Positions 15,001 through 18,000 of a DNA stretch of 41,141 nt are shown one piece after another. A program made the position numbers. This DNA comes from a bacterium (lineage in GTDB: Bacteria; Patescibacteriota; Minisyncoccia; UBA6257; GWB1-50-10). Location: NCBI GenBank assembly GCA_021801565.1, contig JAJYXV010000009.1, forward strand, positions 1 to 41,141. The letters run 5' to 3'. Numbering within the stretch: position 1 is the stretch's first letter; each line of letters opens with the position of its first letter.

Positions 15001-18000
15001 TGCTTGAAGGAGGCAAAACCGTTGAGTTAGAGGTGAGTGGATCGTCCCCACTCCTGAAAGCGGAAGTGGTGGTAAGCGGGATGGGGGGAATTTCAACACA
15101 ATAATATGCATCAACTAATCAGAGACAAAAGCGGAAGTTTAATGGTTGAACTTATGGTAACCGCAAGTCTTATTATGATCGGACTTATAGGGATTTTTTC
15201 TCTCATTATCCACTCAACAAGTATGAATAAAGATGTGGTGCATCGTTTTGAAGCAACATATCTTGCGGCAGAAGGAATCGAAATTATGAAACATGTCATT
15301 GATACAGACGTAGCAATTCCGGATACTGCATTTTTTAATTCAACACTAAATCATGACCAGAATTATGAGGTACAGTATGACACAGATAGAGATCTCGGAC
15401 TGACTGAAATATACGGTTCTTCAACTACGCCTCTGTGGCTCAATGAATCAACAGGACTGTACAGTTATAACAAGGCAGGAAAAGAAACTCCTTATAAACG
15501 AACGGTGGCAGTGGTAAGTGGGAGTAATGAAATAACAGTAAAATCTGAAGTTGAATGGAACGTTGGGGGAGAAAGAAATGTTGTTGATCTTGAAGAGGTA
15601 TTTAAAAATTGGAGAGAAAGAAATTAATATATGAACGCAAAAAGTAAAAATAATGGGCCTGTCCCGCACTTTTTTGAAATGGGTTTTAAAACTCTTAAAG
15701 ACTTTTTTTTGAAAATAAAGACTACCTTTTCATTAGGTGCGCATATAAGAAAAGGTGCGGGGTTTACCCAGTAGTGAAAACTTGGTATGAATAATATCTG
15801 TTAATTTTCATATTTCAAAACAAAATTATTTATCACATGCTGAAGAAATATAAACAACTTTTCACACAACACCAAGTTTCTACTACCGGGTTTACTCTCG
15901 TTGAACTGTTGGTTGCAATGGCGGTATTTGGAATTCTTATGTCGCTTGCAATTGGTGTTTTTGTGAGCGCAATAAAAGCACAAAGAGATCTTGGTGATCT
16001 TATGTCGGTGAATAACAACTTAAATCTTGTGCTTGAACAGATGTCTCGGGAGATGCGCATGGGATATTTCGATGTCTCCCAGTATGAAGCGATTATGGGA
16101 CAAATCAATATCACTCCCTGTCTCTCTTCCCTTTCATTCAGAACAATGCAAACAAATGATCCTAAAACAGAAGGAGAAACAGTAACATATTCTTTTTCGA
16201 GTGCGGATAAAACAATACAAAAAAACGGCGAACCCATTACAGGGAAAAATGTTGCAGTGGAAACGCTTTGTTTTCGGGTGCAACAATATAAGAAATCGAC
16301 GAATCCATCAGCAAATCCTAATTACAACTGTAATCCATGGAGAATTGGAATTTCGCTCGCGGTGAAACCAAAAAACGCAAAATCCGATGTACGGACATAT
16401 ATTGAAACAGCGGTAAGCATGAGAGTATTTCCGATAGAAGTAACAACAGATCCGTATCAATGCAGAAGATCATAATAATTATATGGAAAATAATAAAAAA
16501 AAATCTGGACAGATGATGATACTTACCGCAATTATTTTAGGTGGCGTTGCCTTAAGTGCGTCTGTTATTGCGGGAATGCTTATGTTTTATCAGTTGCGTG
16601 AGGTGAACGACACCGTGAAATCGGGTATGGCACTTTTTGCTGCGGATACTGGCGTTGAAAGTACGTTATATTGTTATTTTAAGGAACCGGGAACGGAAAA
16701 TTTAGATTATAGTCAAAAATGTAAGTTGTCCGGGTCACTTTCAAACGGAACAACATACACAACAGAACTTTCTTGTGTGGATAGTAGTGGATTTCACATA
16801 GTGAATTGTTTAGATCCAAATAAAGAAGATTCGGGGGTATATGGAATTCGTATTAAATCAATTGGAAAAAAAGATACAGTGGAAAGAGTGGTGGATTCTC
16901 TTTTCTCAGTCCGCTTTAATTAGTTTTTATAAGCATGATGAAACGCGATGAGGTACGAAAACGCATAATAAAACTTCAAAAACTTATTGAGTATCATCGG
17001 ATGCTCTATCATACATTTGACACGCCAGAAATTTCTGATGCTGCGTTTGATGCACTAAACAACGAATTAAAAACGCTTGAACGAGCATACCCTGAATTCG
17101 TAAAAAAAAATCTAGTGACACAAAAAATTGGGGGGAATGTGCTAGAAAAGTTTGAAAAAGTATCCCACAAAACACCAATGCTCTCGTTTAATGACGCATT
17201 TTCTGAAGAAGAAATGCATGAATGGCAAGAACGTGTAAAGAATTATCTTTTATCGCTTGGAGAGAAAAACAGAGATGAATTTTATTGTGAATTAAAAATT
17301 GATGGATTGGCGATTGAGCTACAGTATGAAAATGGCGCGCTGGTACAAGGATCAACACGCGGAGATGGATATGTTGGAGAGGATATTACAGAAAACATAA
17401 AAACAATTTCTACCGTTCCTCAGATGCTGACGCAACTTGGGAAATGGCAAATTCCACAATATCTTACCGTGCGAGGTGAAGTATTTATTACGAAAAAAGA
17501 ATTAGATCGAATCAATAGAGAGCAGGAAAAGAAGGGTTTAAGGCCATATGTGAATACGAGAAATCTTGCGGCAGGATCGGTGCGGCAACTTGATTCTTCG
17601 ATCACCGCACTTAGGAAATTGAACTCATTTCAATATGACATTGTAACAAAGACTGATTTTCCTATTGCCACACATGAGGAAAAGCATAAAATACTTGCCT
17701 CATGGGGATTTGTAATAAATCCGCATGATAAAAAAGTCCGGTCGTTAGATGAAGTGTTTCGTTTTAGAAATATATGGGAAAAAAAACGCAATGAACTTGA
17801 ATATGAAATTGACGGAGTTGTGGTAATTCAAAACAACAATACTCTTTTTGAACGTGCGGGAGTGGTTGGAAAAGCGCCACGAGCGGCGGTTGCATATAAA
17901 TTTCCCCCAAAAGAAGCAACAACAATTGTTCAGGGGATTAAGATACAGGTGGGGCGAACCGGTGTGCTTACTCCTGTCGCGGAATTGGATCCGGTGTTTG

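Follow-up and report, generated by a model that had tools for sequence, protein, structure and literature searches.

Two small repeat elements at the prepilin cleavage site of minor pilin genes in a Patescibacteriota genome, one of them a probable donor of a new start and leader

Two different small repeat elements abut the same four bases, TTTA, of the Gly-Phe-Thr codons at the prepilin cleavage site of a minor pilin gene (gene B) on contig JAJYXV010000009.1 of the Patescibacteriota assembly GCA_021801565.1. This contig, 41,141 nt in length, was analyzed as a whole and is referred to here as the window; it is contig C5 of the source genome (G000), which comprises 742 kb in 16 contigs. One of the two elements, family-1, is characterized by terminal inverted repeats (TIRs) and a 4-bp duplication, while the other, family-2, is a separate palindromic element. 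We interpret both as non-autonomous mobile elements that inserted at the same TTTA of minor pilin Gly-Phe-Thr codons, and family-1 as a miniature inverted-repeat transposable element (MITE) that supplies a new start codon and leader, a reading to which we assign a probability of roughly 80%. The window was compared with genomes G001, G002, and G003 and with the metagenome loci L050 and L051, and its positions 14300–16300 were compared with contigs assembled from the independent read runs X9–X12.

The affected genes are part of a type IV pilus cluster (13038–16923) that encodes a major pilin with the N-terminus MKNNKG|FTLIEM, a prepilin peptidase, and several minor pilins. In gene B, the open reading frame (ORF) that begins at the old start translates as MNAKSKNNG, followed by PVPHFFEMGFKTLKDFFLKIKTTFSLGAHIRKGAG and FTQ, and is closed by the stop codon TAG 15772–15774, which lies inside the family-1 TIR. 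The family-2 insert in this frame is bounded by CCCGCAC and GTGCGGG, and its 12-nt arms (15663–15674 and 15750–15761) are 92% complementary. The family-1 element that follows has arms of 21 nt (15766–15786 and 15871–15891; 86% complementary) and encloses no long ORF. Read from ATG 15837, the gene B product is MLKKYKQLFTQHQVSTTG|FTLVELL, and an N_methyl domain (PF07963) is recognized at residues 18–38 (E 8.1e-07; score 28.8 bits, cut-off 21.2). Its motif, TTG|FTLVELLVAMAVFGILM, has Gly(−1), Phe(+1), and Glu(+5), along with the hydrophobic helix. A first-pass annotation of the window had proposed this anatomy for 15631–15905 (the leader, the 105-nt insert, the TTTA pair, TAG 15772, and ATG 15837), and it was confirmed base for base.

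The stacked structure of gene B is also present in independent runs. Record 22 of X9 covers 14592–15962 with 0 differences, and record 7 of X10 covers 15549–16034, including the stacked structure, with 1 difference. No joint skipping either element was found in the X9–X12 contigs over 14300–16300, of which some bins were uncovered in X11 and X12.

A second insertion is found in minor pilin gene A. The left TIR of its family-1 element is degenerate and is interrupted by a nested 20-nt GC-rich hairpin (14481–14500), and the new leader, MFYRKKYKKDNRVFTTG, begins at ATG 14571. The N_methyl match of gene A is weak (E 0.0065, below the cut-off). Genes A and B share the 12-mer AAGAAATATAAA, which encodes KKYK, at 14583–14594 and 15843–15854. 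That both pilin copies contain it had been pointed out in the first-pass annotation and is correct, but the 12-mer is read out of opposite element ends. Among the six prepilin-like genes of the source genome, GGG TTT AC is spelled in A and B only. The nested hairpin of gene A, CCCGYCTGCCGTCGGGCRGG, occurs in addition at 5 places in G001 (loci L069–L072) and at a single place in both G002 and G023, mostly embedded in larger GC-rich hairpins, and looks like a third tiny repeat family. The coordinates of all features are given in Table 1.

Table 1. Features of the pilin gene cluster in the window that bear on the two insertions.
Feature	Positions	Strand	Evidence and remarks
Prepilin peptidase, A24 family	13512..14414	+	Pfam A24_N_bact E 2e-27, Peptidase_A24 E 7.6e-13
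Minor pilin gene A, old start with leader MRRDDG	14449..14466	+	Upstream GCTAGAATAAAGGGTAATG common to G003, where MKKNGG runs directly into FTLVET
Gene A insertion	14467..14625	+	TTTA 14467–14470, family-1 element 14471–14621, TTTA 14622–14625
Minor pilin gene A, 177 aa	14571..15104	+	ORF list
Minor pilin gene B, old start with leader MNAKSKNNG	15631..15657	+	ORF list; empty-site orthologues have basic leaders of 9–10 residues there, following the end of the same preceding gene
Remnant upstream ORF of 47 codons (old leader, then family-2 insert, F-T-Q, and stop)	15631..15774	+	
In-frame stop-free insert, 105 nt (35 codons)	15658..15762	+	CCTG 15658–15661 and family-2 element 15662–15762 (101 nt)
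Left TTTA copy of the 4-bp duplication	15763..15766	+	Phe codon and first base of Thr
Family-1 MITE, 124 nt	15767..15890	+	GTGAAAA-type end left, GTAGAAA-type end right; site empty in G003, L050, and L051
New start and 18-residue leader MLKKYKQLFTQHQVSTTG	15837..15890	+	Wholly MITE-encoded; ATG 15837 is the first start codon past the in-frame stop
Right TTTA copy of the duplication	15891..15894	+	Rebuilds G|F-T behind the terminal GGG of the element
Minor pilin gene B (212 aa) with a motif of class III signal peptides	15837..16475	+	Pfam N_methyl

Related species provide a natural series that runs from an empty site, through a full insertion in which the old start is kept, to a trimmed, domesticated remnant. 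The gene B site is empty in G003, L050, and L051, where the leaders MDIKNNKKG, MRDTRKNNKG (87% identical), and MKERRKKEGG, respectively, run directly into FTLVELL. When both elements are excised from gene B of the source genome, the leader that results resembles these three. The gene A site is empty in the same three relatives, and run X10 contains a further empty allele of gene A as the loose end of a contig. A single insertion is present in gene B of G001, in which the old leader MNTENKKNAG is followed by TTTA, a family-1 element in the orientation opposite to that of the G000 gene B copy, and a second TTTA, and the new leader is MFYKKKNKKDNRVFTTG. In gene A of G002, a 21-nt TIR alone is left, which is read as the leader MKKEKKNNRVFTTG behind AAGGA. 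States with 0, 1, and 2 elements, for which the first-pass annotation had called, thus all exist.

Gene B of G002 has the leader MNFFSKLQSKKSAG (L015, ~440–495; L016, reverse strand), whose coding DNA ends in ACAATC...CTGCTGGG-TTTAC. This DNA may be a decayed family-1 terminus, in which case gene B would once have been hit there too.

The pilins of the source genome have an identity of 0.83–0.87 to those of the empty-site relatives, against 0.65–0.76 to those of G001 and G002. As G000 groups with relatives whose sites are empty, the economical reading is that these four bases were hit several times independently, although recombination at the pilin loci could blur the count of independent events. 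Orthologues of gene B are 65–86% identical, and the ratio of nonsynonymous to synonymous substitution rates (dN/dS) against G000 is 0.06–0.11 for gene B and 0.04–0.08 for gene A. For the mature pilins A and B together, with element-bearing alleles included, dN/dS is 0.04–0.11 in pairs with G000 and 0.04–0.13 over all computable pairs, at a dS above 1; saturation prevented the computation for five pairs of gene B and two of gene A. The mature parts of both pilins are under purifying selection.

Both elements belong to dispersed families. A 15-nt pattern of the family-1 terminus occurs 38 times in the source genome, compared to 0 times for a reversed control, while G001 and G020 contain it 17 and 13 times, respectively (control 0–2 across genomes). 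Paired copies occur in G006, G025, G015, and G021, and at least 5 other genera hold copies. Each copy has one end of the form GTGAAAA and one of the form GTAGAAA, within a 20-nt terminus that is conserved across copies, and both orientations occur. Among 29 pairs, with lengths of 66–139 nt, a perfect 4-bp flanking repeat was found in 19, where ~0.1 would be expected (7 of the 15 pairs in the source genome and 12 of the 14 in the loci fetched from relatives). In three of the pairs without a perfect duplication, the repeats are shifted in register by one base. When the 19 sites are oriented with the GTGAAAA end to the left, the target consensus is R-TWTR-Y, and duplications of TTGA are followed by C and then A or T.

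The ends of family-2 (CCCGCAC/GTGCGGG in gene B) also recur elsewhere, as the first-pass annotation had supposed they might. The terminus CCCCGCACCTTTTC was found 11 times in the source genome, 8 times in G001, 4 times in G008, and twice in G002, with a control of 0 everywhere. Paired copies elsewhere are 128–140 nt long and have 19-nt terminal inverted repeats, while their interiors differ. Most copies lack a duplication, with a 3-bp flanking repeat in 3 of 7 pairs, and TTTAC or TTGAY adjoins one end in 7 of the 10 ends examined. Open frames are not generally kept, as only 3 of 36 frames are open in six other copies.

From the junction in gene B, the first-pass annotation had further argued that each insertion regenerates a GGG-TTTA-C target, so that the site would be reusable and would record the order of insertion. 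Reuse of the four bases is well supported: the source genome contains 5 back-to-back junctions, with element ends 3–4 nt apart, where ~0.015 are expected, and two further near-junctions have degenerate element ends. The exact target fared less well, given the broader consensus above and the fact that 13 of 19 GGGTTTAC sites in the source genome are unoccupied, which indicates that GGGTTTAC alone is insufficient for insertion. The order of insertion cannot be read from the geometry. Its sole pointer is the in-frame, stop-free state of the family-2 insert, which is expected by chance in ~2–4% of cases (one third for length, multiplied by 7–8% for the absence of stops; a stop-free frame was obtained in 6.8% of shuffles). 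This favors an earlier insertion of family-2, while the same state would result if translation of the residual upstream ORF were under selection.

The ends of family-1 suggest how a pilin gene might survive its insertion. Family-1 has the traits of a classical MITE, with TIRs of ~20 nt, a length of ~125 nt, and a 4-bp target duplication, and its preference for TTGAC/TTTAC-like or TATG-like sites would make GGN-TTT-ACN codons a natural target. An entering frame is always stopped in the TIR, as TTTA joined to the terminus CCCAGTAG reads TTT ACC CAG TAG, which closes the old frame at once. Either TIR, read outward, ends in ACT-ACY-GGG (Thr-Thr-Gly), so that the duplicated TTTA behind the terminal Gly rebuilds G|F-T-L-V-E after the element. 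Since the gene B copy and the different gene A copy each contain an in-frame ATG and a Lys-rich stretch, the start and the entire cleavable leader would come from the MITE. The prepilin peptidase encoded in the cluster is the enzyme expected to remove pilin leaders, and once the new leader was cut off, the mature pilin would be unchanged. ATG 15837 is probably the start in use, and the new leaders are predicted to be cleaved. The family-2 element lies in the old leader as a 101-nt palindrome, in frame and free of stops, and adjoins this TTTA without a gap. All three full-length insertions retain the old start together with a short ORF upstream, which makes termination-reinitiation a possible route to the new ATG, and translation of the old short ORF may aid initiation there.

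Few family-1 ends are placed in this way. Two of 49 ends in the source genome read into a pilin, both of which rebuild G|FTLVE, and the terminus of many of the remaining copies contains an in-frame TGA at the position of CGA or CAA in the pilin copies. A likeness between the TIR and the FTLVE-coding DNA (~10 of 13 bases, by eye) was considered as a cause of targeting and set aside, as it was post hoc and the orientation did not fit. A scan of 14380–15950 for promoters and terminators was uninformative, with 7 promoter-like sites compared to 5.1 ± 2.1 in shuffles, and no terminators.

Several observations, along with the empty GGGTTTAC sites, weigh against the interpretation of these insertions as mobile elements that the pilin genes tolerate. 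No obvious Shine-Dalgarno sequence precedes ATG 15837 or ATG 14571, and both new start codons lie inside a predicted TIR hairpin (z −2.84). For most copies of family-1, the interiors cannot be aligned with one another, an unusual trait in a young MITE family, and no cognate transposase with family-1 TIRs was found among the few families searched. At the left junction of family-2, the bases CCTG (15658–15661) are part of neither the element, whose consensus terminus starts at 15662, nor the ancestral leader, and the gene B copy of family-2 has no target duplication. In addition, a search of 401 genomes of the order for the TIR joined to TTTAC detected further pilin cases in G002 only; matches in G192, G240, G122, G314, and G020 do not read into pilins. 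As pilin insertions are confined to one genus among these 401 genomes, tolerance is not general across the range of family-1.

A more far-reaching possibility, which we put forward tentatively and consider rather doubtful, is that one MITE lineage acts as a portable pilin leader cassette, with its own ATG, a basic leader, a Thr-Thr-Gly end, and an aim at TTTAC, and has been kept by selection. This idea stems from the finding that the same element variant is present in gene A of the source genome and in gene B of another species, G001. The two copies are each 159 nt long with their duplications, contain the same nested hairpin, and are identical at 125 of 159 positions; the identity is 43 of 45 over the leader and TIR but 43 of 69 over the interior, which argues that the element-encoded leader is constrained. 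When this pilin-specific variant was sought elsewhere, only the TIR part recurred. If true, such a cassette could exchange the leader of a pilin gene along with its signals for translation and leave the mature protein as it was, and the swap could retune minor-pilin expression via the upstream short ORF and the hairpin. More widely, prepilin leaders would on this view be a general safe harbor in which selfish DNA gains entry to coding sequence.

The shared 159-nt variant with its nested hairpin could also have been spread between pilin genes or strains by recombination or gene conversion instead of repeated site-specific transposition, through the N-terminal coding DNA for FTLVE that is conserved among the paralogues. 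We consider this unlikely, as the homology upstream extends over ~8 nt only (GGGTTTAC) and every copy lies between TTTA repeats of its own. Moreover, the G000 gene B copy has the opposite orientation and a different interior, and elsewhere family-1 shows ordinary 4-bp duplications at unrelated sites.

For family-2, a different placement is conceivable, in which the element inserted between the Asn and Ala codons of an ancestral leader ...N-N-A-G, two codons 5' of the cleavage junction, and its apparent right terminus GCGGGG was supplied by the target. The old leader of G001 ends in AAT GCG GGA TTT, which matches 5 of the 6 terminal bases of family-2 in the source genome, and excision of 15655–15756 (102 nt, in frame) would give MNAKSKNNAG. 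However, the terminus of all other copies runs through GGTGCGGGG, so that a truncated element would have had to be completed by chance, which is unlikely, and the closest relatives (L050 and G003) have K-G rather than A-G at this place. We consider this placement unlikely.

Alternatively, both minor pilin genes may have been inactivated, in which case the ATGs and basic leaders would be fortuitous products of A-rich filler and the genes young pseudogenes. While the lack of Shine-Dalgarno sequences and the position of the new starts within a predicted hairpin would fit this, the ORFs are intact, and dN/dS is 0.04–0.11 in pairs that involve element-bearing genes. The same solution moreover recurs in gene B of G001 and, trimmed and with AAGGA in front, in gene A of G002. 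The leader part is far better conserved than the interior between two species, and the structure is stable in contigs of several studies. Taken together, these observations make inactivation improbable. Finally, the conserved termini, the variable interiors, and the location of several copies in promoters could suggest host regulatory modules (operators or RNA structure units) rather than mobile DNA, but the 4-bp duplications in 19 of 29 pairs, the presence and absence of copies at orthologous sites, the occurrence of both orientations, and the lack of an Rfam match (two chance-level matches alone, far under gathering scores) make this very improbable.

Candidates for a mobilizing enzyme were sought in the source genome and some of its relatives. 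PF01609, PF00665, and PF13358 gave no match in G000, nor did PF13701 in G000, G001, G020, G006, and G025. An IS1595-family DDE transposase (C4:1119–1994; L068, minus strand; 291 aa; PF12762, E 1.4e-46) on a low-GC contig of 8.5 kb was rejected, as no family-1-like termini were found around it. The source genome also contains an intact IS200-type Y1 transposase of 142 aa (C8:146490–146852; L067 1462–1890, minus strand). Beside this gene lies a hairpin with a 17-nt stem that starts with CCCCGCAC, like family-2, and a similar sequence, GGTTCCATTCATCCCCGCAC, is found ~10.6 kb away at C8:157560. The Y1 transposase is thus a lead, though only a lead, for the mobilizer of family-2. Neither the IS1595-family nor the IS200-family genes of the source genome showed a link to family-1.

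A further gene (C6:4315–5643; L064, minus strand) encodes a protein of 443 aa with an N-terminal CxxC...CxxC zinc ribbon and a PD-(D/E)XK nuclease domain (PF12705, E 2.9e-06), and is located on a short contig with a high density of family-1 copies. In a set of 41 relatives, the gene was found in G000 and G022 only (68% identical), which suggests that it may be mobile in its own right. As G022 has no family-1 ends, the gene was not retained as a family-1 candidate. In G020, a pair of TIRs 2.8 kb apart was examined as a possible autonomous element and rejected, as it encloses genes for EF-P and an ATPase and no transposase. A scan of viral contigs for the 20-nt family-1 TIR gave 0 matches.

Other copies of family-1 lie near promoters. 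One copy (C8:94083–94214) has a TTGA duplication followed by C, which rebuilds a −35 hexamer. Such promoter copies in the source genome have the same TIRs and 4-bp duplication as the pilin copies; they are intergenic, whereas the pilin copies rebuild a protein cleavage site and donate coding sequence. Within the window, a decayed family-1 copy of ~130 nt (12864–12993) lies directly 5' of the −10 box of the major pilin (TATAAT, 12994–12999), while at the corresponding place in G003, ATTTGG adjoins TATAAT. With this copy, the pilin cluster holds at least 4 element insertions. A solo family-1 end (1546–1586) abuts TTTG-CTATAAT, an extended −10-like box, 5' of an ORF for a small membrane protein, and a further copy of 139 nt (5072–5210) has an imperfect duplication. 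At C9:1320–1461 and C12:179813–179958 of the source genome, family-1 abuts a family-2 end with 3 nt between them and the same left flank, and this composite is also present at the orthologous place in G001 (C46, L075). This suggests a segmental duplication, or a pair that moves as a unit.

A literature search, with supplementary files outside its reach, yielded no description of MITEs in Patescibacteria, in the Candidate Phyla Radiation, or in prepilin leaders. MITE families appear to be undescribed in these tiny genomes. The repeated reuse of one 4-base target is documented here. For annotation, the insertions mean that pilin genes in such genomes may be given wrong start sites or be called as split genes.

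Among known systems, the Correia elements of Neisseria (CREE/NEMIS) are abundant TIR elements of 100–155 bp with a short fixed duplication, which lie next to genes, are co-transcribed, and form hairpins. Their target duplication is TA, and promoters and processing sites are what they are known to provide. They are not known for supplying a start codon and signal-peptide leader, and their TIRs are not known to be related to those of family-1. Family-1 resembles Correia elements in size class, TIRs, and fixed duplication, but differs in its 4-bp duplication and in probably donating a start and leader. Family-2, in turn, is a candidate for a palindrome-associated element derived from IS200/IS605; such elements make no target duplication and have a fixed target of 4–5 nt beside one end, while in family-2 TTTAC or TTGAY adjoins 7 of 10 ends and 3 of 7 pairs show a 3-bp repeat. 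IS200/IS605 elements have two like-oriented subterminal hairpins, whereas family-2 has true 19-nt terminal inverted repeats.

In-frame intragenic MITEs, among them the Rickettsia palindromic elements (RPEs), ERIC, BOX, and QMITE1, were covered in a 2024 review of prokaryotic MITEs (PMC10969869); in the part of the review considered here, pilins, signal peptides, start codons, and nested elements do not come up. The review describes RPEs and their intragenic counterparts as small palindromes that lie within genes, frequently in frame, and become part of the translated host protein (PMC10969869). The family-2 copy of gene B is similar in that it adds 35 stop-free codons. Unlike RPEs, however, it sits in a leader that would be cleaved off rather than in the mature protein, and most other family-2 copies are closed. 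Family-1 departs further from RPEs, as it does not fuse with its host gene; it terminates the old reading frame and opens another. While intragenic MITEs are usually viewed either as inactivating a gene or as being carried along in frame, in the present case the ends of the element and its target duplication together rebuild the peptidase cut site. This makes it a concrete and testable case of a transposon that may be neutral inside a gene, in which the coding sequence for a signal peptide would have been replaced wholesale.

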